From positions 24,802,001-24,866,000 of the forward strand of contig OZ076409.1 in assembly GCA_964187785.1 (NCBI GenBank): a stretch of 64,000 nt of DNA. The letters are read 5' to 3'. Shown here in pieces: positions 10,101 to 57,400 of this stretch (positions are counted from its first letter, which is position 1; each line of letters begins with the position of its first letter). This DNA is from Amphiscolops sp. MND2022. Its lineage: Eukaryota. A program made the translations under genes and the position numbers. The notes under the pieces are model-generated. The model was not told the DNA's origin. It ran no database searches and worked only from the letters and a program-made list of their open reading frames with translations.

Positions 10101-13100
10101 ATTCTAATTGCATATAAGATCAATCAAGTCACTATTTCCAAAAATGTAGAGATCTGCAATTTGGTGGTAGTAATTTTGAACAACTATTTTATTGAGACCT
10201 TTCTTTCGTGAGGTTTGGTGCTTTTGAATCCCGTCACACTGTCAAATAGCAACAACTTCGTTTGCAATTTGTCGAAGTTTATTTTCTGTAGTTCTGGGTA
10301 AGCTGGAATATCAATGAAGTCGGTCAATGAATCTTTTGCTCTCGTGTTACTCGGTTGGCGAATTCGTCGTTAAATTGAAAATGCCGCGGTGACGAGCGAG
10401 GCTATTCGTTTCTTCTTTTGAATTCTGTCGTTCAATAATTTCATTTACAGCTTCGCCGTGATAGATAATATTGACAGCAAGCGAGCATTGATTTTTAACC
10501 GGGAGTGAGTCTTTATTTTGCAGGCAGCCTCACCTTTTTCCGCTCATTTGTTAAAATTCGAACATAACCCGTGAAAACTAGTTGAAATTATAGATTTTTG
10601 TAAATTTCTCGAATATAGATTTTGTAAACGATTTTTCATCAGCTTGTGTTTCAGTATCAAAGTTTCAAACTCGCTGCGAACAAAACGAAGTACCTACCGC
10701 CAGCACAGGATGAACCTTTCGACGAGATCAACGAGAAAATTGCTGCTGAACTCAAAAAGCAGAACGAAGATTCAGAATCTGTTTCTTCGCAAATCCTGAA
10801 ACAAATAGACAGCAGTAGTGGTGGAGGCAGAAGCGAATCAAAAACGAGCAAAAAGAAATCAAGCAAAGATGACAATGAAATTGTTTCCACAGATGACCTC
10901 AGTTCCGATTCTGAATCTGATTCGGACTCTGAAATGTTATTGGCTAAGCTCAGCTCAGGTCATAAAACATCCTCAAAGAGCAACACCACTCCTGTGGCTG
11001 ATGCGAAAAACTCAATTTCCATCACATCAAAATCAGATGCGAAGAAAAGAATAAGCAGCAATCAGAATAGCTCCACGAGAAGCAAACGGGTATTGGGAAT
11101 GAGTTTCACGTCTCAGACTGATGAAAATGCAAATATGACTCCCATTCCGCCTTCGAAGAAACCGCGCAACGACACGCCGATGCCTTCAGGCACACATTCG
11201 AATAGGAGCAAGTTCAAATTGGAATTGAGTAACAAGAAAGAAATAGTTGCCAATTCACCTTTCAGTGAAGAATCTGAAGGTAGCAAGACTCCTAAAGAAG
11301 ACAAAGATAACAGTTCGTACAATAAAACCAGAAGTAGACGGTCTTTAAGTCCGTCAAAAGAGAAAGATGAGACCCTGGCGGATAAAAAAGAACGTTCAAA
11401 GGGATCAAAAGAGAAAGAGGTGGAAAATGAAGAAGAATTTGTAGAAGATGAAACTCCATCGCCAACGGAGGAAACCGACCAATTTTTACAAAGCCTTGAA
11501 GCTTCTGGGAAGAAGGAATCTGAAACATCGAGTGGGAAGAATGACATTTTGCCTCAGCTAAGTCAAACTGAAGTGGCTAGCAGTGAAACGGAAACAGACC
11601 AAGAAAAACAAAATACAGGCCTTTTTAGCAATCTTTCAGAAAGTATGGACACTAGTCCGTTATCGGAGGAGACATCGGATCTCTCAGAGACTAATCAAAT
11701 CACCTCTACTGGTTCCGAAGTAAAAACGGATCAAAAAACTTCATTCGAATCCCAAACGACTACAACGATAGAAAAACTAGAAGACAAAAAGGATGTAGTA
11801 CAAGTCACAACAGATTCGACAGCAAAATCAGAAGAGCCCATGGACTGTGCTCCAATTCACGACGAACCTCCTAATGCTTCAATTGAAGAAAAACCGAAAG
11901 ATGAAGTAAAACAAGAGAAACCGAAAAAAGAACAGTCCCGAATTGATGAGTCAAAACCTCAAACTATAAAAGCAGAAGTAGCTCTAGCTCCAACACAATC
12001 AGAATCACAAAGCCTACCATCTACAAATTCCAAGAAACCTTCCTTTGAATCTGTTTTGTTGGAGTTAGAAGAAACAGGCCGTGGAAAGCGAACCAAGATT
12101 AAAAACAGTCTCTATAATTCTGATGAGGAAGTGGACCCTCGCCAATTCACCAAGTCTTCAGTTGCTAAGAAAGCAAAGGAGAGCAAAGAGACTGTTAGTT
12201 CTTCAAATGGAAGCAGTTTAGCGGCTACTTTACAGGCGAAAAGGTTGGCAACTTTGACTCCTAAATCAGAAGCAAACACCTCACTGTCTCCGTCGACGAA
12301 ACCGACTGGCATGGCTTTCCAGCGCTCTGTTTCTCATGGGTCACCTGCTGTAAAGCCAGTCATTCTTAGCGAGTCTAACAAGATGCATTGCAAGCCTAAA
12401 GGAGTGGTTAAAGGCACCCCTCAGCCAACACCTCCCAAAACGGCCCCGGGACCTTCTTCCGAAGATGCTCTGGTTGACAAAGTTACCGAAAGAGTAAGTT
12501 GCAAAATGATATTGTAGCCAAAGGTTTATTTGTTTTTAGTGGTTGCATTTTTATTATTTCTGCGATAGCAGGAATATTATTGAAACCTCAAGATGTCTAC
12601 TTTTTTTCAGTGAAATTCTTCGCATGATACTGAATAATTCAGATATTTTGTTCGGTAGTGACTATAAGCGTGAGAATTAAATTTTTCAAGCTGCCGACGA
12701 CGATTTCAATTCTCGGGCGATGGAACGAGCAAGTGGTATTTATGCATTCGTACGCTGACGTCATTGAGATTGTGAAACTTCGTCTACGCTTAGTAGTTAT
12801 ATTTGCTTTAGTCCGAGATTTAAAGGCGGTATAAACTGGTACAGTGATTAATTGTGCGCTATATTAATGATTAAATAGGAGGGTATTGGTATTCCAGACT
12901 TGATTCTGTTATTAATGAAAGATTAAAACAGAAATAATAGTGTGCCCCGGAGGGGCCTATTTTGTAATAGTGAATTTTCGCGAGTTTACTAGAAACCGAT
13001 TCAAGTGATCAAATATAATCGTTTGAACCAAATGTTGGACCAAAAACGAGTTTAACACATTATACAACAAACGCTTAAAGGTCCGGAAAAGGCCCCATGG

Positions 13101-36400: not shown

Positions 36401-39400
36401 TTTGTTTGCAGGATGTCCATATCCCCAATAAGTGGTCCCTTGGATTCTGCTCAGTCACGTTTCTCGTCAACTCCGTGATGGAAATTGAGTATTTCGCCTT
36501 GATGGCAACTTGAAATATGTCCACCCACTTGTCCCATTCCATCGTTGGTTTAGCATTGGCGTCGTGCCAGAAGTCAGGAAGTCCGACGAAGGAAGTCCCT
36601 CGGGATGTTGAGGAATTTGCTCCTGAATTCTCGGAAGATGTCCCTCGGAGCGTCATGTTGAAGGGAAACTTAATAAACTGAAATAGTCAATTGTGATAGT
36701 AGGTATAAACAAGGCAATTTTAGCAAATGAATGCTCACAACTGTTTTAACTTTAGACTTTTAGCAGGTATCTAATGAAGTATTCAAATGTTAATGTTGTT
36801 GTTTACAAATACTTCGTACTCTACCACAGTAAGCCTCCTTAATTATTGCGCTGATCCTTCCGGGCTCTTTCAACTTCCATGCAATATTAAACCACTGATT
36901 TGACACCTTTTTGCAGAGTTGAAACTTTTTGGGAGAGTTTTGCAGTGGTGAAAAGATAATCATGTTGTTTCTTTTGATTTTCATAGATGACAGAAATTCC
37001 AAATTATTTAAAATGGGGACACTCTAGATTCTTGTGGATGCTGTAGAACTCTGAACGTTCTGTTAACAATAATGATCAAATCTTCAATAAATAAAGCTTT
37101 CAGAGAGCGTCCGTGTGATAAATCTGGAAACTGATAGGAGGGTCCGGAGACGTTTTTGTGTAAACGAAAGAGCCGGTGATGAAAGCTCTATCTTGAAGCA
37201 AATCTTTCTTTTTATATTCATCCTCTCAGAAGCAGTTTCAAACAAACTATTTCAAAAGCTTTTTCCCAAGAACTGGACAACAAAGTGGAACTGTTTTGTC
37301 TACTCTAATTTTTTGTGTGCATCGTTGTCATGCCAGCATGATGGAAATATAATCTACTAATAATCTGTAATGTAAATATTATGTCTTATGTACTTAGATA
37401 TGGGCAATATGATGTCATATAATAAGAGCCATGGTTGTGAGCAACCCTACGTTACTTATACTTAATCCCCATTTCCCCCATGAGTTTGAGTTATATATAT
37501 TTACTTAATACTGAGCGCTCTAGTTCCGGTGTCCGCATAAATGATCTTGCTAAATAGTCTCGAATGTGCTATATTTCATAAATATTGGTTTGTCACGACA
37601 AGGGAGAGAAGTTTTTCGGGTCAAACTGGACCGAGAGATACAAGAGAGACGAAATGTTAACTTCTACTAGCTCCCCGCCTCAGGACTTGTAGTCGTGACA
37701 ACACTTTCATGAAGTTCATCGCTAGTCCATCAGCGGATTTAACGATGAACCCGAATTGACTGATAAATTCATTAGATCCATCAGCGGATTTAATTTGGAG
37801 CTATTTTGAATGAAGTTCATCGCAATTTCATCTCCGGAATTGCAGATGAACAACGATTGGGACGTTAAACTGACTTTTCACCACTAATCCATCAGCGGAT
37901 TTTATGGGACCTTATTTTAGTAATTTCATCTTAAATTCATCGTTGTATTTCATGTAAAGAAATTTCAATGTGCTTCTCATTTCTTAAAGGACAGTAGCAC
38001 ATCCCCTATTCATCTCTCACTAGCATAGAAGGGAAATGAGAAAGTACATCATTAATCCATCCTAAAAGAGAGTGAAAATGCTGGTTATCTGATTTGCTTA
38101 GTAAACCCATCCTTAAATCATCTTGATTTCGTTCGTGCTGAAAATTGACCATTTTAGTGGATGAGTTCATCCTAAACTCATCGCTAAATTGAATTGCCTT
38201 AGTATTCGGTGTTTTAACTGGTGAGTTCATCCTAAACTCATCGCCAATTTGTATTGCTTTGGTATTTGCTGTTTTAACTGACAAGTTCATCTTAAACCCA
38301 TCGCCAAAAATTCACTTGTGCTAGAATTAGCGTTTATCGACTGAATTCATCCCGAATTCACCGTCATTTTAATCTGTGCTAGAAATTGGCAAATTGTACG
38401 TGGAGTTCATCCTTTTATCATCGTCAGTTTAAATTGTGTTGATTTTCGAGCGAGAAAGACCACCATTCATCGCATTTTCATCCAGAGCTAAACTAGACTT
38501 GAAAATCAACAAATATTCTTACAAGTTCATCGCATTTCCATCTTCAATTTTTAAATCATTGGTTTTGGCGCTAGAATCAGCGGAAAACATCGTTTTCCCA
38601 TCCCGAATTGTGCTTTATCTTAAATTGACTTGAAATCAGTGCGTTATTGAATGATTTGAGCTCATTTTAGTTGTTATTGAAACCATGATGCTACGTGCAG
38701 GCAATTGCGACATTGTAAATTGATGACTAAACACCATTAACATATGTAGATGTACCATGATGCGTGGCCACTTTGCGGCAGTTCACAACACCGGTCACGT
38801 GACTTACCATTTTGACACCAGCTGGTAACAGCCAATGAGAGAAGGTTGGTAAGAGATTTAGCGTCTTACCAACCGAAAAGACACGTGAACTGCTGTATTT
38901 TGGACCGCCATTAGCGATTACTCAGACCGAATTGCGACAAGCTACCATCCAGTTGAATAGTTCACGCCAAAAATCTACTTAAAAATATATCTCTATTTCA
39001 TCTTCAGAAACTATAGAACGGAAACTGAGTAATTTCCTTGGTGCATCTACGACTGCGATGAAAATTGGATGAACTTTCCTAACTACCTTGCTAATTTCCT
39101 TCTTCTCACCTAACGACTTACTTGCTTGTACGACTTCATCTCTAAAACATCTCAGTTCAGATTAGTGAATTTGAGATCGAATAGCCATTTAAATCAGTAA
39201 AGTACATCGAAACAGCATCTCAGATAATCCAGTCTTCACTCATAATTCTTTTCTCTCGACTACATGAACCCAGATCAAGGTACCGAACTTAGAAGCGGTA
39301 GAGTCATAAATTCTTCGTCAGAAACATCTTCTCCGACAGATCCAAACATGGCTCAGGCAAACTCAAATGATTCTGACACCAACGACAATTCAGATATCTC

Positions 39401-42400
39401 TTCTCAATTATCTGAAATAAAAGAAAGTTATTAACGCCGAATTAACGAGTTACACCAGGAGTTTAGTCAACTGAAGGACTTAATGATGGCGATTGTAAGC
39501 AAGGACAATAACGAATCTCAGCCGTCTAGCTCAAAAGGTCCTTCAAAGCCGGCCCAACAGCATGGGCTCGACATGGTGACAGGAGTTACAGAAACCCGCT
39601 CCACCCGCCCGACATCAAGTTTCACAAACTTCAGACGATACCAAGAATATGACTCAGACGAAGAAGGCGATTCAACTCCCACAAGCAACGAAGAACGGCT
39701 GTTAAACGCCATCGAGACGATCCCGCAACGCATAAAGAGCACTACAACAAATACAAAACTACTGCAGACACACGTACCGAATTTCAGAGGACAGAAAGAC
39801 AAATTCGTCGAATTTGAACACCTTCTCCTCAACCACCTCAGCCCGTTAGCCAATAAAATAACTGAGGAGAACAAGCTTCATTTCTTTCAAAGCCTTTTGA
39901 GAGACGAAGCAATCGAGTATTGGCAATCGATCCAAATAACACCACTGACAACGCTGAAAGATGTGCTCGATCTCTTCAGAAAAGAATTCGCGAAAGAGGA
40001 CCTTAAAGAGGTAACGCGCTACAAATGGGATCAAGCCCGTTACGATCCCACAACGGAGACATTCAGCGACTTCCTCAAAAACTTGAAAAAGTTGGCGAAA
40101 CAAGCATTTGGGGATGACGCAGATAAAATCATCAAAATGTTCTTGTTCGGCAAACTTCCAGTCGAAATACAACAAGAACTTACAATGGCCAACAAGGAGG
40201 AGAGCTCACCAGAAGAAATCAAGACATACTTGATGAGGAAATACCAATACCAACAGTATGCAGCACCGCCCACGACAATTCAACCATTCAACGCAGTCAC
40301 CTCCTCTATTCCGACGAACAATGAAACAACCAAACCAACAACGACGACGACAACACAACCAACGGAAAGAAAACGATTCGAAGGACAATGCTTCTACTGC
40401 GGAAAGACAGGTCACCGCAAAACGGAATGTCGCGCCCGACAACGTGACGAAGCAAATGGCATCAAGAAAGAAGACGCAATTCCGATGAAGAAAGCAACCG
40501 ACCCAGACAAACCGAAGTACAATCCCAAGCTGGTTTGTCAGATTTGTGGATACACTGGCCACTCCGCAAGAGACTGCAGACGACGCATTCCCAAAGAAAG
40601 TAGCTCTGCATATGGCAAGATCCCTTATGCCACAAATTCACAAGACGACAATAAGGCTAGAAGACAGGACTTGAAACGACAACAAAGACCAATGAACCCG
40701 ATGCAAGCAGTTGCCGACGAAGAGGAACAGATAAGCTACTCTGATGAAGACATTAATCAGGGTTTTTGATTCAGCCACGATTTCCGCCCGCTAGAAATAC
40801 AACGCGCGACACACGACTTTCGACTCAACCGACTACACACAACCGTCCAATGAAGAAATGGCAGCCTTCACTGGACAAACGACCAAAAGCTGACGATGTC
40901 TATCAGCGAAGATTTTCCAACGATGAAAAAGCGATGGGAAATGCACGTCAACACAACGGCAGCCGCTTTTCCCCACTCGCTGAAATCAACGATGAACATG
41001 AGATGAACTGGCAACACAACACCATGAGGCAGGTGGATGAAGCCAAAGAGATGGCTACCAACCATCTTCACCACGACTCGACTTCTAACACAACAAACAA
41101 CAAACGGCTTAGTATTAGAAAACATGCAACGCAAAATAGTATTAACGATTCAAAAGCTAAAAAACATGCAACTAAAACAGAAATTCACGTTCTTAGTCCC
41201 ACTTTACATTTGAACAAGAAAGATGAAATGCTGTACGTCCCTCTTCAGTTTGACAAATACGAAAACCACGCACTGTTAGACACAAGCGCAATTCAAAGCG
41301 CAATGTCTGAAGCAGAATTGCGAAAAATAACAACGGCTCATCCAGAAGCCATCCTTCAAGAACTCCCCCCTCCGAATTTCAAAATTCAAATAGCAAACGG
41401 GAACTTATTCCCAGTGCGTAAGCAAGTCTTACTTAGATTTTACGTTGCTGGAAAAGTCTTTGAAGAAACGTTCCTAATCCTTCCAACAATGGGCACAATT
41501 TTAATTGGAATGTCATTCTTTGAAAAGTACTCAGTCAACTTAGACATAAAAAACCACCTTGTCCACTTCCCCAATCACATGATGTCCATGCAAGTTAGAC
41601 AGCAAAAGAACAAAAGATTCAAAACTGGTTTAATTGATTTGTGTTCCAGTACTAGAACAGTGATCCCTCCTCTCCATCAAGTGATGATACAGGTCCACAG
41701 TGACGCGGACATCTCACTTACAACTGGTACAGTTGAGGGCTCACCTGGATTCATGCGAAAGACGTGTTTGCTTGTTTCCCCAGCTTTGGTTGACCTAGAT
41801 GAGGGCAAGACGACAATCCAGGTCACCAACCCGAACAACCACACGTTCACACTTAATGCCAACACCACTCTGGCACACTTTCGCATACCGACACCACATC
41901 AGGCGGCAAACATCACACCCATGCCAGTCGAACACTTGAACTTGATCACCAAGTACCCAGATGAGGCGGAAGCGGTGATCAACCAACTGTTCGTGAACCC
42001 TGAAATGAAGTCAACTAAGTGGTACCCAACTCCCGAGACGTGCAGTGAGCCACACAAACTCAACGCAATTGAGCGACGAATCTATGATGAGATTATGGCA
42101 CTGCGAGAGCTCGAGAAGCTTGACCCGTCCCAATCCGATGAACAACGGATGAACTTCCTGAAGAACTTCAACTGGGACGACTCGCTTCTTACTCCGTCTC
42201 AACGGTTACAGGTAGAGGAGTTGCTGGTAAAGTACAACTCCATTTTTGCTAGACATCGTTTTGATATTGGTATGAATACTGATTTTAAAGTTAAGTTAAC
42301 ACCCCAACATGAAGAACCTGTTTATTCACAAAGTCTCCCTACTCCGACAAATTTGAAGACGATTTGCTCGTGGAGTTAGCCTTAATGCAAGAGTACGGGA

Positions 42401-45400
42401 TTATAACTACCTTGCCTCACAGCAAATACTCTTCTCCGATGTCTGCTCAACGTAAACCTAATGGTAAATTGAGGATTTTAGTTGACCTGAGAAGAATAAA
42501 CCATCTCATCAAAAACGATTACGGTGAGCACAACCATCCCGTAACAACAATTGCTGACGCTGCCCAACACATGGCCGGGAAAAAGTACTTCTGTAGACTT
42601 GATTGTTCCCAGGCCTACCATTGCATTCCAATGGCCGATGAGCAGTCTGTCCAACTGTTATCGTTTAATTTTGGTTCTAGAACTTTTGCCTTTTTACGTC
42701 TAGCACAGGGTCTTAATCGTTCTTTGTCAGCATTTACAAGTGTAGTTCGTGAGTATTTGGACCCCTTGGTCAAAGCAGACCGGTGTGCTCAATATGTTGA
42801 TGACATTGGAATTGCAGCACACACCCCTGACGAACTGATTAATAACCTTGAACTTGTTTTTCAGCAGTTGAACAAAGCTGGTCTTAAACTTAGCATGAGT
42901 AAATGTGAATTTGGACAAAAGCAAATTGAGTACTTGGGCAAAACTATTTCTAGCACCGGTATTGCTCCCATTGAAAAACGCGTAACAGACTACTTGACCA
43001 AGTTGAAACCCCCCAATTCAGTGAAAGCGTTGCAACGTTATCTTGGTTTTGTAAACTTTTACAGGTCTTATATTCCCCGCCTAGCTGATAAAACTTGTTG
43101 TTTACAGGAATTGATCAAGAAGGACGTCCCTTTCAAGCTGAGCCAACAACACAAAGATGCTATTTTTGAAATCAATGAAAGTTTGTTAAAAGCAACAAAA
43201 GTGTCTCTGAAATTGCCATTACCTGATAAACAATTGGTAATCATGTGTGACCCAGCGAACACGCTGCCGGCTATGTTTTGTTAATTGAGGATTACGCTGA
43301 CCCGTCAGTCAAACAAACATACGCCCCCGTTGCATTTGGCTCTAAGAAATTTCAGGGCGGCCAGATGTCTCTAACAATGTATGCCAAAAAGTTTTTAGCT
43401 ATGTACTTTGCCTTCGATGAATTTGGCCACATTTTGTGGGGTGCGAAAAAACCCATCATTGTTATGACTGACAATAAGGCCTTGACTAGATTTTTCCAGG
43501 CGAAGCATATCCCGCCTTCATTTTGGAATTTTTGCGATCAAACCCTTCAGTTCAATTTTTTATTAGCACATGTACCAGGAATTGAAAATCCCGCAGCGGA
43601 TTACTTATCTCGTTTTGAGATTAGACCTGAAGACCGTGTACATTTAAAATTGACTGATACTATTCCAATTCACAGAATCGAGTTCGACATCGCCTCCCGA
43701 ACACCAAAACAGGAAGAAGACGAGCCTGATTACTTTCCCACGAGCGAACCACTCAGATGCAAGCGCCAGAAGGTTGTCAAAGAGATGAACTTGGCACCTG
43801 GCACTGACGTGGCTCATGACGGTGGGAAAGGGATGAAGTTCACCAACTGTGAGAGAACAGCGGCCTCAGATGACTTCGCGACTGACAACCATCTGACGTA
43901 CCGCCTCACAGACGTGGACGAGCCGATTCAACTCTCGCAATTCATCCGTAAAGTATCATTATCACACCCGGTAATGAGTCAGGTTAGCCCCGCTGAGGGG
44001 ATCGATCTAATTCAGGTCCAGAAAACTAACTGGGTTATTCAAAAAATGATTAGATTTTTAGAAGGTACTGAAATTTTGCAACACCCAGTTAGTATGCAAG
44101 ATCAGTTTTTTCAAAAGTTGCACAAAAATCGAAAACGCCTAAAAGTTGTAAACGGTGTCTTGTACAGACAGTTTTTTGATCACACGGGACTGGAGTCTCA
44201 CAAGCAGTTAGTTGTTCCTGAAGACTGTATTTTGAAAATATTTAGGACTCTACATAACAGCTCGGTACAAAGACACCCTGGGTTAAAGAAAATGTTGTAC
44301 GAACTTCGTAAACGATATTACTCTCCTAACTTAGCCTGTAAAGTTCAAAAAGTCCTTGACGGATGTGAAAACTGCAGGAAATCTAAAAGTGTAAAAGAAA
44401 CGCAACTACGTCCACCGTTACAAAAAATCTACGACCCGTGCGACGGACCAGAAGACCTGTTGGAAATAGACATCGTTGGTCCACTCCCGGCGTCGAACAG
44501 TTTTACACACATTCTGACGGCTGTTGACGTTTTCTCACGCTACCTGTTCGCCGTTCCGCTGAAGAGACCTGATACACATTCCGTAGTCAGAGGATTACTG
44601 TCGATCTTCACGAAACACGCGTATGTTCCCAAGCACATTCTGACGGACAAGGGCACGGCGTTTACGGCTGAACTTCTGTCTGAAATCGCGAAAGCGGCTG
44701 ATATTCACATCTCCCATGCCACGATGAAGCACGCACAGACAATAGGCATGGTGGAGAGAACGCACGCGAAACTGAAAAAGATCCTTAAAATTAGTGTAAA
44801 CGCAGACAGACCACAATGGGACCGCTATGTCGACATAGCAATCATGGCCCATAACACAACTTACCACGACTCACTGAAATGATCACCAACTGAAATTTTC
44901 CATGGCAGAATACCGTACAACACACTAGACCTGCAATTCCGAAACGCAAACAAGCCGGCTGAAACAAAGTGCAAGGACGTGAATGAAATTCTAGACAAAA
45001 TGAACTTCATCTTCAGAGACAATCTAGACAACATCATCTGCGCCTATCACAAGTACAAAATGTACGATGATAGAAAAGCACGAGCACAGCCACTGAAGGT
45101 GAATGAATTTGTGTTCCTACTAGGTCCTAAGTACGACTCTCAGAGAAGCAAAGAAGAGTTTAAATCTTTCCATTGGAAAGGACCGTACAAGGTGATGAAA
45201 GTGCTATCCGATAGCAACTACATCTTCCGCAAAGTAGGCACACACTAGACTCAGTGCGTACACAGAATGCGAATGATGTTGTTCAAACCGGAATTTCCGA
45301 TTGATGACATCAACGTGTCCAAACATCTCTACCCAGACACTGAAAGGGTTGAAGACACGGACATTTTCGACTCGAATATTCCGACGACCGACGAAGTAGA

Positions 45401-48400
45401 TCAGAATGAGAATGACAATCTAGATCAAGACTTAGTCGAAGAAGAGCCTTCAGAAGAAATAGTTCCGCAGGTACAAGAACGACACAGTCCACAAGTAATT
45501 CCACCAGAAATAACCACGAGAATAGACTATCAGCAAGTAGAAACTGACCACAACAAATTTAGACCACCTACAGTTAGATTTGGAACGCAAGAGGAAATTA
45601 TTCTACCGCCCCCCCCGCGATGAAAGTAGGATAAGATTACCTCTGAGAGACGAACAACACGAAAATCAATCACAACAGACAAACACGCAAACTGAAGATG
45701 AGGAAAGGATGAGTTCTAGACCGTCTAGAAACAATCAGACTAGGTACAGGTTACGCGAGAACCCTACACCGAAAACATATCCTGATTTCCTCATTCATGA
45801 GATTACTGCAGCTAGAAACGCACTGAGAAAGACTAACAAAGTAGACGTAACGATTTAGCCACGAAAAACCACATTTCCAAACACACGATGAGTTACGGAT
45901 GAAAATTCACAAAAACGAGTCAATTACATGCAATTTCAACTTAAAACGAACATGAAGATGTAAAATAGATGAACAATCACTTAAAACTACATGAAATACG
46001 CAAAACAAAACGAAACACGATGTAAAACGGATGAAAAACGACCAAAAAACCAGAAAAACAACACATAAAATTTTGAGATGAAAAAAGGATGAAATCACAT
46101 GAAAATTTATCTCAGACACACGAGAGATGAAAAAGTGATGAACTTAGTCGAAAATTTGACCAATCAACATGCAATATTTACTAGCGATGCATTGGAGATG
46201 GAAAATGCATCATAATACAGGCTAGAGGATGAAATAGCGATGAACTCGATTCAATTATTCAGAACTTACATGAAAACAATTAATGATATGAATTTGTGAT
46301 GGAAACTACCATCAAATCGTGACCGACTTTATCGTTAGCCTGACACGATACTCTAGCTTCGCTGGAGGATGTCAAAACGATGAATTTAGTCTAAATGGAA
46401 GTTCGAAAATATTAAATGACTTACGAAAACCTCCTTGTGATGGGAAACACCATCCACAAAACATCACAATAAATCAGCTAATTCCCAAACAACATGTAAC
46501 TCCACGAAACGATAAAAAACAGCCGACTTTATTTCGAATCACGCAAATAGAATTATGTCAGACAAAAATGAAATGATCAATACATGTAAGCTTCAAAGAC
46601 CTGCCAAATCAATGACGTCACGAAAGAAATTGACAAATCTAAACTACATGCAATACAAATGAGCAACATACGCAAATATACATGTGCCGTTTAAAAATGA
46701 ACGAGATAATATATGCAATTCACACCAAAGCCATACAAACCTAGACGAAAAAAAATGAAACAAACAATCGAAAATACATGAAGCCTACTAATTTACATGT
46801 AAAATATAAGAACTGACGAAACATCCACAAAACGAATAAAGGAGTGAGCCCCCCCCCCCCCCCCAGTGAACATCAGTTCATAACATCATAACAAGCAAAA
46901 TACCCCTATCGAAAAGCCAAAAATGTTCCTTCGTGCTGGCTGGCATTTCTCTGAAAAGAGTGCTGGTTAGTTGAGGCGGGGAGCTCACAACCATATTCGG
47001 ATGAAGCTTGCTGCGTTGGTTATCCAGCGGCTAGTGGATTCTCAGTTAGTTTTGTAGGGGCTTTGTGACGACAAAGCCCTGTCCAAATGAACGAAAATAA
47101 AAACACCAAATTAAAATACATGAAACTAACACCGAACATATAACAACATGTCAATAATGGGGCAACCCATTTAAAGGAATACATTATGAAAACACGCGAA
47201 CATGAAACCACACAATATCACAAAATTTAAAAATTCGAAACATGCAAAGCCGTAGATGTCAATCACCCTGATTGATCAGATTAAACGTCAAATGGACAAA
47301 CCCATTTCGACGTCTGATGACAAACAACCGACCGTAAAAAATAACATGAAGACTATATATAGCTCAAAACTGAGAGATTTCATTCATCTGAAAGGAGCGG
47401 AGCAGCTCCACTCACCCAGCTCTGGATTGGTACCTCAAGTACCTTGCACGCCTACGGGGTACCAATACCATTGCTGAGTGAACATCTCTTCGACTGCCAC
47501 GCAAGCGGCGGTCACAAGAGTCCGGAAAATGATTCATGCAATGATGTTCAAACTATGACAAATCCGAAACGCAACGAAAATGAGTATAACACATGTACAC
47601 TAAAATTCATGCAATCTCGACAACCTGACAAACGATCAACACCATATAACACTAAAATACATGAAGAAAACACTCCGAAACCACCGCAAAGTTGATAAAA
47701 TACCCTCATCCACTATGAAAGACGCAATCCTCGATTACGTTATAGCAAAATAAACACGAAAACACGCAAAATAAATATTTTCCAAAATTACGATGAAAAG
47801 AAGATGAACTATGCAGCAAAATGAGCAAAAATTCGACAAGTCAAAACTTGCGATGCAAAAACGATGAACTACAGCAAATAACTCGCCAAAATGATAAAAT
47901 GAAAACGCAAGATGAAAAAACGATGATCTATGTAGAAAAACCACATGTAACAACATGCACTGATTCACATATAACGAGCGATGTAAAAAAGATGAGAAAA
48001 ACAGTTTTCGCGACATCGCTCGGCCGACTGAGGAAAACGTGATGAAAATGAGATGAAAAATCAAAACGAAGCACTGATTATCTAACTACACTTACACGAG
48101 ATGTAATAACGATGAACAACATGACAAAACTCTCCTACAAATTCTATCAACTGAAAAGTGATGTGAAAGCGATGACCAATGAAAACACAGAGCCGCCGAT
48201 TTGACGCAACCTACCAAATGAACTTAACCAGTGTGAAACTAATTGAACTCTACCTGCATTCCCACTCACTATTAACTCAAGAGAAAAACAATTTCGGGTG
48301 CCAAATATTTAACTTGCACATAGTACACTGCCGATTTTTCCGACGCAGCGCATTTCTTCTTCTCCTCTCATGTCACTTAATGCGACATATAAATTGGTCA

Positions 48401-51400
48401 CCCATTTGCTAGATACAATACTATAACATACAGTAAAATAAAATAACATGAAAGATACAACAGTTTCAAATAAATGTGAACAAAGTACAGGCGTTAAACA
48501 CCAATTTCTGGACTAGCAGGCCGCTCCCCGTTTATGCTGTACCCCAAGTTTGAATATAAGCGCAGTCTATAATCTTCGCCAGCCACAACCCCAATGTCGT
48601 CCCACAACATACTTTCGGTCAGCTCGTTGAGATCGACTAAGCGCCGGTGTGACTCTGCAACTTCGTCTAGAAGAGGACCACTCACACTTTCATAGCTCCG
48701 AATACTGCTGGAAGAAAGATAGCTCACGATAATGGCACATACACCACTCGTTACGTCGCTGCTTAAATGGCCAACTCCGTCACACAACAAAGTATTGTTA
48801 CTCTGAATGCCTCAGTCCAAGCAAAATATACTTCGCAATAAATTCTGGGCACCTCGATTAGTACAATAGCACAGGAGGTCCAACACCGACAGATTCATCG
48901 CACTTCCGGTCGCCCCAGAACCACGTCGATAGTAACTGATGAATTCCAGGAAGCCACGTTCCATGTGTCCTTGCTCTGCATACGAGATTCGGCATAACTC
49001 AACAAGAAGATCCGTAAATACCCGGATTTCGGCCAACAGGACATCTTCAGGAACAATATTGAGACTTGGGAGACTGAACACACTCCGAACAAAGGACACA
49101 TCATCCCGGACTCCTGGCAATGCGCTGACATTTTTCATGACAGTCAAAATGAAGACTGGCACTCGGGACATATCTTCATCATAAAGACATCCGCCCACAT
49201 CCACTTCATTATTGGCAAGAAAACTGTCAATCAGGACTTGTTGTTTAACCTCGGAGATGGCATAACTCTCCACGTCCACGAACAACCAGGAACGCGTATC
49301 CGATGCTGCTGGCAATCGGTCATCATCAACCAGAGTCGACATCAGTTCTCTTATGAAACTGGCACTTTCCACCGCCCAGTAACAACTGCGTACTGAAGAG
49401 GCACCAAAACTCTTCTCGTAGGAATTCACCACTGAAACATTAAGGTACAATAAATTCCACATGCAACTTGTATGACCACCCCCCCCTCACACCAACGAAA
49501 ATAACAACCCCACAATAGCCCATCTAGAAGTGACCCGACAAGACTCCAGCAGGAATATAACAATTACTAACGAGCACGGTAAACTAGACTGAGCGCCTGT
49601 AGCCTGATTGGAATCCCAATCTCTGCTCGCAAGGTCAGGTCAAGTGTGTCCAATGGTCCATCTCCACTGGTAAATCGCAACAGACACACAATGTCAGCCC
49701 AGTTACTCCTCAATTCCTCGCACACATCAGCGAGCGTCCACACAAATACCTCACCAGAAAGAATCGCCTAAATTGTAAATAACATCGTATTAATTAACTG
49801 CATACATTATGAAGTTCACTACAAATCCCCCCTTCAACACTCCGTTCACACATTACTACACATAGATACCATCACATCAGGAAATCATACGTACTTGCAG
49901 CAAATGCGGACACGCCAACAGCAAAGGATCCTTCACGAATCCTTTCAAGCGCTTCTGAAGATGGTTAAGAACCACATGGATATCAGTCCCACCAAGCACT
50001 TGACCAGCCACATCCACGATCGTCCGACTGACATCCGACAACGTGAAGGGTTTTACGTCCACGAGGCCAACCCCAGTGGTGCTTCGGAACAGTCCACTCA
50101 GCTGCGGCAACGCATCACAGCACAGTCCAAGTGGAACAGGCTCTCCGAGCATGCAACACCACATGTTTACCAGCCAAGTGATCACTCGACCCTCCTAGTC
50201 ACGAGCCAGATTAAAGCAGAAGACAGTGTAGTGACTAACTCCGTCCATGCCACACACTGCGACCGTACCAGTCACTCGCCCACCAGTCACTGTCAGATGG
50301 AAACTGCTGTACTCACTATTGCTCCAGATGGTAATCAGTCTCCGCATTACGTACGGCCACAAGCCAAGCAGAACAACGCTCTAAAATCAACATAAGGTCT
50401 TTCGAAACCATACATCATAATATTATACCGCCCCCCCACCCTCCATTTCAATAGTAAACAATAGAAAATCCATACTAAATCGAACGTAACAGAAAACGCA
50501 AAATCAAATTTCTCACCATCACGTCGGACAACGCGCAAGTTGCCCCAAACAAGACCGCATGTTGGGGATCCGACGACACCAGCACTTCCCACAAATTAGC
50601 AACTCCACTAAATTGACAATCGCGGTACAGAGCGTCGACCACGAAGCATACAAACAAGCGCACAGTTTTTTCTGGCCAGTCTTCCCCCTCTTCGTCTTCC
50701 GCCCACACTGGCTGCCCAGCCCCCTCCAGTTCTAATACTTCCAAAACACTGAGTGACGGACAAGTCTCAATGAAGGGTACAATCACCCCACCTAAGTTCG
50801 CACGACACTCGGGGCTCTCTTCATTCGTCATGAGCGTTCCATCACGTCGCCGCAACGGAAGCCCACGGTGTACACGGATCACACAATCCTGACGGTGATG
50901 ACGCAGTCCTCGGCAATGTTCCATAAAGGTGGTAATGCCTCGGCTGCCCACCTTAACGTCTCTCTTGCACATTAGGCATCACACATAGGACATGCGCGAC
51001 TCGTGATTGCGTGCATATCCTAGCGCCAGACCGCAGTATGGATGATCAAACCATCCGGACTTGATCACCTTCTTTCCTGATAATCACAACAAAACACTAA
51101 AAACAAAAGTAACATCATTACAAATCATCATAGACAACGACTAAAATCATCTGTCACACATCCGCAAAATCGAAAAATGCAAAAGTAAAACGTAAAAATC
51201 AAAAACGTTCACCCGGAGTGATGAAAACATGATGTAAAATAATATTTTCATTGGAAATATAAGCGAAAACGAAGAAAAAACTTAACGATGAAAAAGAGAT
51301 GTAAACTGAAAAGAAAACGACGAAAAATAGCTAAAAGACGGGCGAAAAAATTTAAGGATGTAAAAGAGATGGAAAGTTCTAAAAAATGACCAGAAAAGAA

Positions 51401-54400
51401 AAACGCTATATTCAAGACTTTTGACGATGATAAAATGATGAAAAATAGAAAATCGCAGGAAACTAAATAACGAGAAACGGTAAACGATGGAAAATAGATG
51501 AATGCAAGCGGAAAAGAAGAAGGACGTAAAAAACGCTAGTGAAAGTGTAAACGAAAAGAGAAAAGAATAAAAGCTACCGATCAGATACTTCACAGGGTTA
51601 AAGCTGTTTAGGTAACCTGGTAAGCGAGACGCAATGGGCTCGTCGTCGGAGTCCACCGGACTGGGTCCCATGGGAGACGTCTCAGCAGACACAGGAACCA
51701 GACCGGGAACAGCACCTTCCGGAGCAGGCTTAGCGGACAGAGGATCACCAGCAGGGACATCCTCGACTGCCTCAAGAAGGAGCTCAGTGCTGTCAGTTGA
51801 TGGCACGTCAGACTGCTCAACGTCAGCCTCCACAGTTTCAGGGACGCTAGCAGCTGGCGAAGAGGGAGCAGCCGAAAGAGTTTCCACAGGAGGATCGTAA
51901 TCCGTGGAAGTCTCGCCAGTTTCCACAACGGCCTGAACGGACTGGTCAACAACAGCCACGCAGGCATCGACTGCCACATCCACAGGAGTGACGACGACAC
52001 TGATTCCTGCGTCTACAGTGACGCGAGTAAGAGGAAGAGGACTTCTAGCCGCAGATTCACGGTCCAGAAAACGCTGAAAATTCGGCGAAAGTACGGACAC
52101 TAGAGCCTGCGCCACTGGGGAGCTAACTGCATCCAAACAGAGGACCTGGAGAAAAGAAGACATCTCCAACGGAGGAGGCGCCACTTGTGTGCCGGCATCA
52201 ATCTGGGATGCAACAAAATCACTCGTCCCTATACCCACTGAGTAGGAAATAGGACGAGGTCTTGGCGCATGGATGGGAGTCGGGCCTGAAAGAAGAAACA
52301 ATAATCAGATGACGACGATTGGAGAAGAAAGAGCGCGTACGCCGCGCGAAGAAAGAAGACCGGAGAAGAATTCATCTGAAAATCATCTTCAAAAATGGAA
52401 TTTGCAGTGAATCAGTCACGAAGGACTGTGAATGTCCATGACACATCCTAAATTCATCTTAAAAAATGAGTTACACGGGTAACCGACCGCAAAGGGCACT
52501 ACATGAAGATGAGATGTTTATATCGGAATCACATCGGAGTGTCCGGACGATGCCCTAATGTAGATGGAAAATGAAAACGTGGTGCCAACTCACTGTATTG
52601 TTGAATGCTGTCTCGCAGCATGTCCTGCATGTGGCGGTCGTACCACCCGAAAGTGATACTCCCGAGAGAGGCATACCAAGGGTAGTGATCTAAACATCAA
52701 ACGGAAAGAGTCTGCGTCTGAATAAATCAGAGATGAGGAACGAAGGGATTTGTAGACTGAATTGAAGATCTGGGAGGATAGAACTTACACTGCGGAAGGT
52801 ATGGGACATTAGGACCCTGACCGAGCTGCTGATCAGGATTAAACTGGAGTTCAGGTGCTGCTTGCTGAATTACTGGAGACTCTTGGGGCGGCAGGGTCTG
52901 AAGATTGGTCAACTCGGAGATGATACCGACAGAATGGACTGAGTCCGCTAAAGGCAAGACGTACTTTCAATACCTAATTGTCCCTAACCCGTTTTTGAAG
53001 AAAACAAAATTAGTGCACTTACCTTCTGTGGCCTCGGTCTCAGGTAATGAATAGATGGAGTGAATGTCAGACATCGTGTAGGATTGCAAAACAAACAATC
53101 TGAAAAGGAACGGAAGAGAGTGAAGAAAGGAACGAAATCGAAGAATCTGAAGACAGGAATTTGATCAGTAATTAAATGGCCTGATCAACCATGATTGCGG
53201 GATACAAACTCACGTGAAAAATCAAAGAGCGCGAATGCAGCTTGAGTGCCAGGACAAACCAAATACTTGAATTCAGAAGATGAAAAATCGATGAAAACTC
53301 TCCTATTTCAATGACTGACTACACTTTTCTTCCCAGTTACAACCAACGCAAATTTTCTCTGAAAATGGATCGCCCTCTCCTAGAATTCGACTACAAAAGC
53401 TTCAAGTATTTGATTTGATGACAGCTGCCAGTCTCAGATCAATGCCGATGAAGTTGAGCGGAAAACGCGCAAAAGAAATCGTGGCGATTTTCAAACCGAC
53501 ATAACTAGAGATGATTCATGGATGAGAATGTTTGCTGACGACCGGTTGGATTTCCTCCAGTTCAGAAATTTCAGTTTTCAGCCAATCAGATTTAGCAGTG
53601 ATTGATATGGCAACAGTTCATCTCTCTCTCATCGCTGAGAAGTCAGACAGCGGAAGTAGCTTCAACGGTTGCTATGACAACAATTCATCTCTTTCCTATC
53701 GCGAAAACTGATAATAGAGCAACGGCGCCAGTCGTCTGCTAAATCAACATCGATGTCTCGCTGTGTAAACAATTCATCGTTCATTCATCCCTGACTCGCT
53801 GCCACCTTATCAATAAAGCTAGTCGAATTGTTTGTTCAGTGTAGGCGTTTTTGGAGGGAAACTTTTCTCCGAGAAATCAGCTTCTACCGAAAATAACCAG
53901 CCGAAACTCCCATCAAAAGCATGACAACCAATAAAATGCAGATCAGCGGACATTCGATGGGCCAAGAACTAGAGTTGCCGCGTCGAAAAAAGTTAACCGA
54001 AATCACCCAGCATGAAGCCAGATATGACGATTGCCGAAGGTCCTCTTCTCAGAGAAGTTTTACATAGGACAGAACAAACGAAGGACATACCAATTCAGAA
54101 CTAACGAAGGTCATTTTCTCCCCAACCGAACGAAGGAAGCAGTCGAAGCCAACGCCGAGACAACCATCCTCTGCACATTTGGCCCTTGCACTCTCAATCC
54201 AAATCCCACCCCGGGGAGTGTCATGCCAGAATGATGGGAATATAATCTACTAAATATCTGTAATAAAAATATTATGTCTTATGTACTTAGATATGGGCAA
54301 TATGATGTCATATAATAAGAGCCATGGTTGTGAGCAACCCTACGTTACTTATACTTAATCCCCATTTCCCCCATGAGTTCGAGTTATATATATTTACTTA

Positions 54401-57400
54401 ATACTGAGCGCTCTAGTTCCGGTGTCCGCATAAATGATCTTGCTAAATAGTCTCGAATGTGCTATATTTCATAAATATTGGTTTGTCACGACAAGGGAGA
54501 GAAGTTTTTCGGGTCAAACTGGACCGAGAGATACAAGAGAGACGAAATGTTAACTTCTACTAGCTCCCCGCCTCAGGACTTGTAGTCGTGACAACACTTT
54601 CATGAAGTTCATCGCTAGTCCATCAGCGGATTTAACGATGAACCCGAATTGACTGATAAATTCATTAGATCCATCAGCGGATTTAATTTGGAGCTATTTT
54701 GAATGAAGTTCATCGCAATTTCATCTCCGGAATTGCAGATGAACAACGATTGGGACGTTAAACTGACTTTTCACCACTAATCCATCAGCGGATTTTATGG
54801 GACCTTATTTTAGTAATTTCATCTTAAATTCATCGTTGTATTTCATGTAAAGAAATTTCAATGTGCTTCTCATTTCTTAAAGGACAGTAGCACATCCCCT
54901 ATTCATCTCTCACTAGCATAGAAGGGAAATGAGAAAGTACATCATTAATCCATCCTAAAAGAGAGTGAAAGTGCTGGTTATCTGATTTGCTTAGTAAACC
55001 CATCCTTAAATCATCTTGATTTCGTTCGTGCTGAAAATTGACCATTTTAGTGGATGAGTTCATCCTAAACTCATCGCTAAATTGAATTGCCTTAGTATTC
55101 GGTGTTTTAAGTGGTGAGTTCATCCTAAACTCATCGCCAATTTGTATTGCTTTGGTATTTGCTGTTTTAACTGACAAGTTCATCTTAAACCCATCGCCAA
55201 AAATTCACTTGTGCTAGAATTAGCGTTTATCGACTGAATTCATCCCGAATTCATCGTCATTTTAATCTGTGCTGGAAATTGGCAAATTATACGTGGAGTT
55301 CATCCTTTTATCATCGTCAGTTTAAATTGTGTTGATTTTCGAGCGAGAAAGACCACCATTCATCGCATTTTCATCCAGAGCTAAACTAGACTTGAAAATC
55401 AACAAATATTCTTACAAGTTCATCGCATTTCCATCTTCAATTTTTAAATCATTGGTTTTGGCGCTAGAATCAGCGGAAAACATCGTTTTCCCATCCCGAA
55501 TTGTGCTTTATCTTAAATTGACTTGAAATTAGTGCGTTATTGAATGATTTGAGCTCATTTTAGTTGTTATAGAAACCATGATGCTACGTGCAGGCAATTG
55601 CGACATTGTAAATTGATGACTAAACACCATTAACATATGTAGATGTACCATGATGCGTGGCCACTTTGCGGCAGTTCACAACACCGGTCACGTGACTTAC
55701 CATTTTAACACCAGCTGGTAACAGCCAATGAGAGAAGGTTGGTAAGAGATTTAGCGTCTTACCAACCGAAAAGACACGTGAACTGCTGTAATTTGGACCG
55801 CCATTAGCGATTACTCAGACCGAATTGCGACAAGCTACCATCCAGTTGAATAGTTCACGACAAAAATCTACTTGAAAATATATCTCTATTTCATCTTCAG
55901 AAACTATAGAACTGAAACTGAGTAATTTCCTTGGTGCATCTACGACTGCGATGAAAATTGGATGAACTTTCCTAACTACCTTGCTAATTTCCTTCTTCTC
56001 ACCTAACGACTTACTTGCTTGTACGACTTCATCTCTAAAACATCTCAGTTCAGATTAGTGAATTTGAGATCGAATAGCCATTTAAATCAGTAAAGTACAT
56101 CGAAACAGCATCTCAGATAATCCAGTCTTCACTCATAATTCTTTTCTCTCGACTACATGAACCCAGATCAAGGTACCGAATTTAGAAGCGGTAGAGTCAT
56201 AAATTCTTCGTCAGAAACATCTTCTCCAACAGATCCAAACATGGCTCAGGCAAACTCAAATGATTCTGACACCAACGACAATTCAGATATCTCTTCTCAA
56301 TTATCTGAAATAAAAGAAAGTTATGAACGCCGAATTAACGAGTTACACCAGGAGTTTAGTCAACTGAAGGACTTAATGATGGCGATTGTAAGCAAGGACA
56401 ATAACGAATCTCAGCCGTCTAGCTCAAAAGGTCCTTCAAAGCCGGCCCAACAGCATGGGTTCGACAATCGTTGACTATAGATCTAGTATAATAATGTAAT
56501 ATAGTATAATATAATGTAATTACGAATCAAGCGAAGGCTCAGAAAACATTTTCCAAGAAGATGATCAATTGATGACTACGATTTTTAATGATTTTTTTGC
56601 ATGTAATTATTATGCAAAATGAAGTGTTCCAAGATTTTGATATACAAACGGTAAAATTGAACCCCTCTATAGCTATGTCTCATTCAAAAACTGAACCTAG
56701 TTTCCCTTTCATCCCTACAATTGCCAAAATTTACACGAGTCAAAAAGTCCGGAGAAGCCTGAAATTTGTATTTCAAATTTCTGAATTGAACAGACTTCAC
56801 TTTAGATTTTTTTTTGCATATTCTTTTATTATTATTTGATCATTTTATACACTACATTTAGACTATAAAGTAAAAATGGAGTCGTCTTTTATCAAAAAGA
56901 GGTTCAAGATTAGCGGCTTCTTTGTAAGAGGGGTCATGTCACATGTTATTCGCATGATTTATAAATCTCTCTGCCCCGAAAACATTAACGTTCTGTCACT
57001 TCACAATGCCCTTGCTTTTACCGCTAAGTCATTGCACTTAGCTCAAATTATCCCCTATCGATCGGCCCGTGGTGTTAAAGAACCTTTTTTGTGTAACTGT
57101 TGTGTGTAGTATTTAAATTGGCGTTAACACTGTTAAATTCCCTTTATTGTAGCACAGCTGTATGACCAAAAAAGGAAATAAAAGCGGCGAACCTGCATTG
57201 TAACTGTGAGTGTGTCATCTTTTTTAAGGGTGACAAATAAACAAAGCTCCTCTTTGGGACCAATTATAGGTGTGAAGTGTCGGGATCTGAATTTGGGCCG
57301 TAAGGCATCGTCCCTCATGCCATAATCTACATAATCGTAATCTAGAGGGGTCTTAATCTCGGGTTTTCCGCCTTCTTTGCCTTCGTTTGCTTGAACTAAG

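Follow-up and report, generated by a model that had tools for sequence, protein, structure and literature searches.

The 64-kb window analysed here (64,000 nucleotides of the forward strand; contig OZ076409.1, positions 24,802,001 to 24,866,000) originates from Amphiscolops sp. MND2022 and contains a Ty3/gypsy long terminal repeat (LTR) retrotransposon of ~19.1 kb (37326-56466 of the window). The element carries an additional gene on the minus strand (53074-48494), located between pol and the 3′ LTR. An initial annotation had described this antisense gene inside a retrotransposon, which our analysis confirmed. In this study, the gene, its copies and the element were analysed in the 1.07-Gb assembly containing the window. 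The gene is under purifying selection and very probably derives from a hAT transposase, and tentatively we propose that its product binds a short motif repeated throughout the element.

Structure of the retrotransposon

The element is flanked by a target-site duplication of 5 bp with identical bases at 37321-37325 (left) and 56467-56471 (right). Its 5′ LTR (37326-39573, 2248 nt, TG...CA) and its 3′ LTR (54219-56466), which is immediately preceded by a short purine-rich stretch, are 98.98% identical. Abutting the 5′ LTR, a probable primer-binding site starts with TGG (39574-39591), as it does in six of six elements with a visible LTR end; no tRNA genes were found in the window. The gag frame with zinc knuckles (39435-40769; PF00098, E 1e-7) is followed by pol (40757-45623) with protease, reverse transcriptase (RT), RNase H and integrase, an order as in Ty3/gypsy elements; in the window copy, pol is disrupted and split into five frames. 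All these features lie on the plus strand. The gag reading frame already opens within the 5′ LTR (39348-39573) and reads through the primer-binding site, likewise in other copies. Between protease and RT, a weak dUTPase-like match (PF00692, E 0.008) was found at 41636-41878. Downstream of pol, a non-coding spacer (45624-48493) extends to the end of the antisense gene.

In all ten elements in which both LTRs were located, the LTR pairs are 98.6-99.8% identical, and at least 150 RT copies with 97-100% identity were found in the genome. The element family is young and abundant.

Structure of the antisense gene

For comparison, 38 copies of the gene were fetched via DNA search. Four truncated ones (L005, L015, L037, L038) were dropped and the remaining 34 were aligned with the window copy, resulting in 35 sequences. 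Protein searches yielded 38 further loci, so that 76 gene loci were sampled, rather than enumerated, overall.

The initial annotation had joined nine segments, all of which were reproduced (3189 nt, 1062 codons plus stop; GT-AG intervals of 75, 99, 308, 540, 136, 127, 48, and 59 nt), but only eight of them are supported as coding exons. The proposed 33-nt micro-exon (49491-49523) is intronic. Each of its two splice sites is retained in 13/35 copies, compared to 33-35/35 for the splice sites of introns 1-6, the exon-7 donor and the last acceptor. Differences are evenly distributed over its codon positions (14/15/15; exon 6: 83/41/231) without third-position bias, and the region is rich in insertions and deletions in divergent copies. 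On these grounds the micro-exon was dismissed; among the 38 further loci it had no match. It had been thought to resolve a frameshift, which 33 nt cannot do, and exon 7 joins the last exon in frame over a single 140-nt intron (49432-49571). The model supported by the comparison of copies thus has eight predicted coding exons, seven introns and 1051 codons plus stop.

Coding exon 1 (53023-53074, minus strand as all following exons) begins with an ATG present in 35/35 copies, and is followed by exon 2 (52789-52947). Exon 3 (52594-52689) is a short conserved block also found in a deep clade of gene copies. Exon 4 (51617-52285; dN/dS 0.20-0.39 between subfamilies) is of low complexity, rich in Pro, Ser and acidic residues and presumably disordered, in agreement with the long disordered N-terminus described before; the accessory protein has an N-terminal extension of 330 residues. 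Exon 5 (50517-51076) encodes dimerisation-like helices and the zinc finger, the part with the highest conservation, exon 6 (49895-50380) a predicted RNase H-like core without the full catalytic set, and exon 7 (49572-49767) contains an invariant Trp. The last exon (48494-49431) resembles the insertion domain and C-terminus of hAT transposases in hhalign comparisons. The CxxC-x16-H-x5-H pattern read from the window holds across the family, with both Cys and the last His in 16/16 copies and the first His in 15/16. Upstream of the ATG, a probable acceptor of an intron in the 5′-untranslated region was detected (53100-53125, minus strand; AG at 53101-53100 kept in 34/35 copies), and a non-coding first exon may therefore exist; a similar site is present in the deep clade, too.

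Three premature stops in exon 5 (50979-50981), exon 6 (50195-50197) and the last exon (48812-48814) each occur in 1/35 copies. Since they are private to the window copy, they are lesions of this copy, and an alternative genetic code reading stops as Trp was rejected for the same reason. A plus-strand frame (207-codon open reading frame (ORF), 49772-50395) was rejected as source of the constraint, because opposite frames are closed across the copies.

Intron 4 (51077-51616, 540 nt, minus strand) has a conserved 5′ stretch: its first ~15 bases (51600-51616) are alike even in the deep clade (L088, L092, L054, L055), exceeding a normal donor, and in most copies the donor has the uncommon sequence GTTA. 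The introns at 52286-52593 and 52690-52788 are ~85% identical between subfamilies with near-saturated synonymous sites, which suggests non-coding constraint on introns 2 and 3 beyond the motif described below. Tandem duplications of parts of the gene inside elements were seen at L043, L053, L094, L020, and G000:C6:65036424-65049794.

Selection and linkage to the element

Between subfamilies, dN/dS is 0.11-0.17 (7 pairs, ~1,025 codons) and ranges from 0.04 to 0.39 by exon group. In the deep clade, the proportion of nonsynonymous differences (pN) is 0.11-0.31 versus 0.66-0.80 for synonymous ones (pS). Per copy, the gene frame contains 0-0.3 stops, compared to 1-19 in the five other frames. The antisense gene is under purifying selection, and the same applies to the 38 further loci, which share its exon layout. 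In three protein searches of the genome, at least 150 matches each were obtained, with clades down to ~30% identity in exon 6; copies this divergent are still antisense between integrase and LTR and have unchanged introns. Two observations are less favorable to a maintained gene: dN/dS among near-identical copy pairs is 0.55-0.81, which fits decay after insertion but gives no support, and just 7/34 copies combine uninterrupted frames throughout with a complete set of GT/AG sites.

The latter point, with 27/34 copies broken somewhere, and the three stops in the window copy would also be expected if a hAT transposon had inserted passively and were decaying in the element. With dN/dS of ~0.1 at saturated synonymous sites, conserved splice sites and no pair of terminal inverted repeats (TIRs) bracketing the gene, such a passive nested insertion is hardly conceivable; the between-subfamily dN/dS refutes it.

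An LTR or pol of the family lies within 10 kb in 73/76 gene loci, and the three others (L043, L044, L053) still bear the CATC-N7-CATC motif described below. Free-standing gene copies were not seen among the 76 sampled loci. As the loci were located through the gene itself, these counts describe gene-bearing loci and not the family as a whole. Outside the assembly, the exon-6 profile matched 42 proteins among 1.84 billion representatives. Ten of them were looked up and are unnamed ENA records; many end at the same intron position. Two of the outside proteins have no close match in the Amphiscolops genome, so relatives of the gene exist elsewhere. Homologue searches by word index (exon 5; exon-6 alignment against longer proteins) returned nothing, which is weak evidence.

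Relationship to hAT transposases

A hAT clade termed A8 was found in this genome through a motif, and 58 relatives were aligned; the named ones come from animals, which makes an animal host probable. It is a widespread animal clade with Hermes fold, for which no Pfam family reached E<0.01 beyond the finger (PF05699 in 0/58); members in this genome are L082:3530-4825 (minus strand), L079, and L081. A8 aligns to proteins that contain PF05699, with D, D, CxxH, and RW matched (P 82.5%), and its structural model (predicted local distance difference test (pLDDT) 88) matches Hermes at E 7.5e-8. By alignment and predicted structure, clade A8 is hAT.

The finger of the antisense gene matches A8 at E 4.7e-4, and the last exon does so in hhalign with P 72.8% and E 3.2e-5 over 187 columns, stopping just short of the third catalytic position. 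By this match, the helical insertion domain leading to that position is present. The last-exon score climbed from 37 to 52 when deeper copies were added, while the maxima of shuffles were 26.6 and 20.9, respectively. The full-length profile scored 121.7 against A8 versus 59±7 for 40 shuffles, with segment z values of 5.7 for the finger, 4.8 for the dimerisation part, 1.8 for the core, 0.6 for exon 7, and 8.6 and 2.5 for two parts of the last exon. Single A8 members against the gene profile gave a median z of 3.8 (51 proteins), compared to mostly <1 for reversed sequences (max 2.8, n=10); controls reached 0.6-1.4 (pol) and 0.3-4.9 (Ac-type hATs). For the last exon, neither Ac-type hATs nor pol controls matched. 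The resemblance to hAT transposases noted initially was thus supported, finger and last exon matching A8 collinearly. For the stretch GLWPY..SSFHLTVT, read as a hAT segment, hhalign picked the expected register but the score did not beat shuffles; with this stretch being weak, support comes from finger and last exon instead.

The core was approached by structure prediction. The exon-6 model shows a helix, three strands, and a helix arranged as in hAT transposases, and Hermes is its top-ranking match among 48,161 chains (Z 4.6, root-mean-square deviation 4.6, 93 aligned). The predicted RNase H-like core fits in element order at a weak profile match. Several results weigh against hAT ancestry. 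The hhalign E-values are pairwise, and A8 was picked because of a suspected resemblance. Pfam zf-BED stays sub-threshold for the BED-like finger (E 0.03-0.14), core and exon 7 did not beat shuffles against A8, and hhalign E-values for exons 6/7 were non-significant (0.25, 0.08, 0.91). The exon-6 model is of low confidence (pLDDT 58), its Z of 4.6 sits in the common range, and Foldseek returned nothing at E≤0.001 with it. In global mode, hhalign produced no usable alignment of exons 6/7 with A8. Profiles of exon 5, exon 6 and the last exon gave nothing significant against PDB sequences, and exon profiles reached a best E-value of 0.017 against 349 ORFs of 20 Ac-type hAT loci and of 0.034 against a further 222 ORFs of 4 more loci. 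An atlas search with exon 5 returned unnamed clusters at 0.76-0.78.

Language-model neighbours of exon 6 are DDE transposases (0.85-0.87), which speaks for a transposase origin as a lead only; they are of the ISL3/Mutator type rather than hAT. Together with the non-significant core profile and the absence of a named match among the 42 of 1.84 billion representatives, the latter would agree with capture of a host gene or of another DDE family. However, four segments of the protein, namely the finger, the dimerisation part and two stretches of the last exon, align collinearly to a single hAT clade, and the last exon matches neither Ac-type hATs nor pol controls, which makes a non-hAT source very improbable. 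We regard derivation from a hAT transposase as very probable.

The protein is in all probability catalytically dead, as judged from the mapped positions: acidic residues at all three of them occur in 0/16 copies in either register, consistent with the loss of the triad predicted initially. The position of the first catalytic Asp, which appeared replaced in the initial annotation, is acidic, on an approximate mapping, in 5/6 deep-clade copies and not acidic in others. The second position is acidic in 8/10 copies outside the deep clade and not within it, remnant acidic residues thus being divided between clades. One Cys and one Trp are invariant, and equating them with the C-x2-H and RW motifs depends on the register. 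A caveat to this reading is that the active site was mapped from anchors and secondary structure with two possible core registers. As stated before, TIRs do not surround the gene: the longest inverted pairs are 17-25 nt, imperfect, and many are built from the motif (25 longest of 105). An 8-bp target duplication was not found around the gene either. The old hAT ends may have eroded.

The CATC-N7-CATC motif

The initial annotation had overlooked a motif with an 11-nt period as well as the mosaic of gene versions described further below. TTCATC is the most enriched 6-mer in the element. TCATC pairs at a distance of exactly 11 nt occur 23 times, compared to a mean of 1 and a maximum of 5 in 2000 density-matched permutations; at other distances up to 30 nt there are almost none, and 154 kb of background contain 1 pair. 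The resulting pattern CATC-N7-CATC has 50 sites in 16.9 kb (5′ LTR to 3′ LTR) versus 0-3 at five other spacings. They are distributed over the LTR (16, part of them forming a 60-nt tandem array), the spacer (17), introns 3-4 (8, six of them in intron 4), the region upstream of the gene (4), gag-pol (4), and the 3′ exons (1). Of these sites, 45/50 are non-coding, and both orientations occur. In the 3′ spacer, motif bases are conserved over their surroundings (97% versus 66% for other bases; 47960-48490, 7 divergent copies). All 76 gene loci contain 7-46 sites, compared to 0/24 control loci, and genome-wide there are 19,598 sites versus 727 for the backwards pattern. Three identical pattern matches ~1.4 kb apart at G000:C1:1700895-1703813 apparently belong to another repeat.

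The spacing of one helical turn, both orientations and the conservation suggest that a protein recognises the motif in double-stranded DNA. The antisense gene may encode it: within its product, conservation peaks in the finger core (65-95% versus 21-60% for the insertion-like region), and the deep clade, with 39-44 sites and a preference shifted to CATCG, differs in the finger as well. Some aspects argue against this assignment. TTCATC was chosen post hoc after k-mer counts, with the 11-nt spacing being independent of this choice. One motif is common to gene versions whose cores differ strongly, so that VANC-like target switching would have occurred at most between two deep clades, and a host factor could bind the motif instead.

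In the latter case, the hAT-derived protein would tether or escort the pre-integration complex or bind RNA. C2H2 fingers with five residues between the histidines occur in RNA-binding fingers, too, and binding of the motif by the protein is a prediction. Products of plant antisense ORFs were proposed to aid nuclear import (PMC7264820). Both orientations and the 11-nt period suggest double-stranded DNA, however, the motif accompanies the gene in 76/76 loci and shifts its composition in the deep clade with the differing finger, and the free hAT loci of this genome lack it. We therefore consider a host reader of the motif rather unlikely.

Mosaic of gene versions

Ten elements were assembled from neighbouring stretches, of which nine were usable in addition to the window. 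Five elements differ from L026 by pS of 0.02-0.09 in integrase and 0.08-0.25 in RT, and by pS of 0.53-0.90 and pN of 0.07-0.41 in the accessory gene. Divergence in gag (pS 0.38-0.50) likewise exceeds that in pol. Nearest neighbours differ between the 5′ and 3′ exons of the gene. Old gene versions ride on a near-uniform pol, which requires recombination between elements.

This contrast between pol and gene and the different neighbours of 5′ and 3′ exons would likewise be expected if the gene versions were self/non-self specificity alleles under frequency-dependent selection, acting in exclusion or addiction among competing copies. The same pattern would arise, however, if recombination had recently spread one pol through old lineages, and with dN/dS far below 1 and gag also diverged more than pol, specificity alleles are quite improbable.

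Proposed function of the gene

Our preferred, although tentative, interpretation is that a captured dead hAT transposase binds the motif of its own element and keeps copies active, in a manner similar to VANC and TnpA of plant transposons. Most likely, a hAT transposon inserted in reverse into an ancestral element, and its ends were lost afterwards. The antisense orientation would let introns persist in the genomic RNA; splicing would act on a separate transcript of the opposite strand. Conserved in the family between integrase and 3′ LTR under purifying selection, the gene would encode a protein that no longer cuts DNA but keeps the finger and the dimer fold. The ~50 mostly non-coding pairs of directly repeated motifs, spaced by one turn of the helix and occurring in either orientation, would be sites on which it acts in trans, keeping copies active against host silencing. 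The finger would stay constant, while the dead core and the insertion domain, facing host factors, would diverge, and template switching would shuffle old gene versions onto the shared pol.

One point counts against assigning this sign of action: the sequence fits activation and repression alike, and from it the two cannot be told apart. A protein of the same origin and DNA binding may instead repress its own family to control copy number. Dead or truncated transposases can act as dominant repressors, and the observations on the gene, its hAT ancestry and the motif are compatible with binding that activates as well as with binding that represses. Self-repression nevertheless appears unlikely given a young and abundant family (LTR pairs 98.6-99.8% identical, at least 150 RT copies) and motif sites spanning the whole element, not the promoter alone.

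Going further, domestication of a transposase by the retrotransposon as a sequence-specific anti-silencing factor with ~50 sites spaced by a helical turn, whose deeply diverged versions circulate on one pol backbone as the element and its host compete, an animal counterpart of VANC across transposable element classes, is possible, but more doubtful than the function itself. If the proposed function holds, one transposon would have domesticated the protein of another from a different class, a gene with several introns would be maintained on an element copied through RNA, and sequence-specific anti-silencing might also exist beyond plants. The traceable origin and the candidate target sequence make the function directly testable. 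The ~19,000 excess motif sites seed the genome with potential regulatory sites.

Elsewhere in the window, a 629-codon open frame without Pfam match (10628-12517, plus strand), a dispersed repeat family with many direct and inverted copies of 50-150 nt (5600-31900) and a 24-nt tandem array (5929-6360) were observed.

Comparison with known systems

In the literature covered, with most subscription journals and Repbase outside its scope, no LTR element was found to be described with an antisense gene that is rich in introns and descends from hAT; the papers retrieved dealt with plants or rotifers or were reviews. Antisense extra ORFs of LTR elements are known, and PMC7264820 states that the origin of most and their function are unknown, with no similarity to other transposable elements. 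Plant aORF-3R (TRP28 of Retand with PF04195, Grande gene23, RIRE2) are, like the gene described here, antisense between pol and 3′ LTR, conserved, present in most copies and proposed DNA-binding regulators (PMC7264820, PMC11963269); TRP28 antisense ORFs occur in 97% of Retand clusters (PMC11963269). In contrast to them, the gene in Amphiscolops is predicted to contain seven introns, can be traced to hAT, comes with a candidate target motif and probably has an animal host. The word 'intron' is absent from the text of the Retand paper (PMC11963269), and a PF04195 match was found neither in the window nor in the gene protein. Outside plants, brtn of Boty-like elements in Botrytis is also an antisense extra gene in Ty3/gypsy, and the passages covered that cite it report no transposase origin or motif array (PMC7264820, PMC8365987). 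Rotifer ORF3s are covered in PMC5408684, and co-opted accessory proteins of Arabidopsis transposable elements are described in PMC13547354.

Compared to hAT transposases (Hermes; A8 with copy L082), finger, dimerisation helices, the predicted RNase H-like order of elements and insertion domain are shared collinearly. The antisense gene differs in lacking the full DDE, TIRs and the 8-bp duplication, in its added 330-residue N-terminal extension and in having introns, L082 being an intronless frame of 432 codons. ZBED-type genes are domesticated hAT transposases as well, whereas here a retrotransposon, not the host, would have domesticated the protein.

A parallel in the proposed mode of working is with VANC of VANDAL and TnpA of Spm, in which an accessory protein encoded by the element likewise goes together with a short motif densely arrayed in its non-coding DNA, its introns and its tandem repeats. 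The motifs recognised by VANC are short and abound in non-coding regions of its own element (PMC5735166), and TnpA is transposase-derived, retrotransposons being unmentioned in the passages covered of that source (bioRxiv 10.64898/2026.08.24.746577). VANC and TnpA belong to plant DNA transposons with demonstrated binding and derepression, whereas the Amphiscolops protein is carried by a retrotransposon, very probably stems from an element of another class and is known from sequence alone, and unlike with VANC its motif is largely common to the gene versions. The likeness would lie in the mode of working and not in membership; the origin here appears to be hAT.

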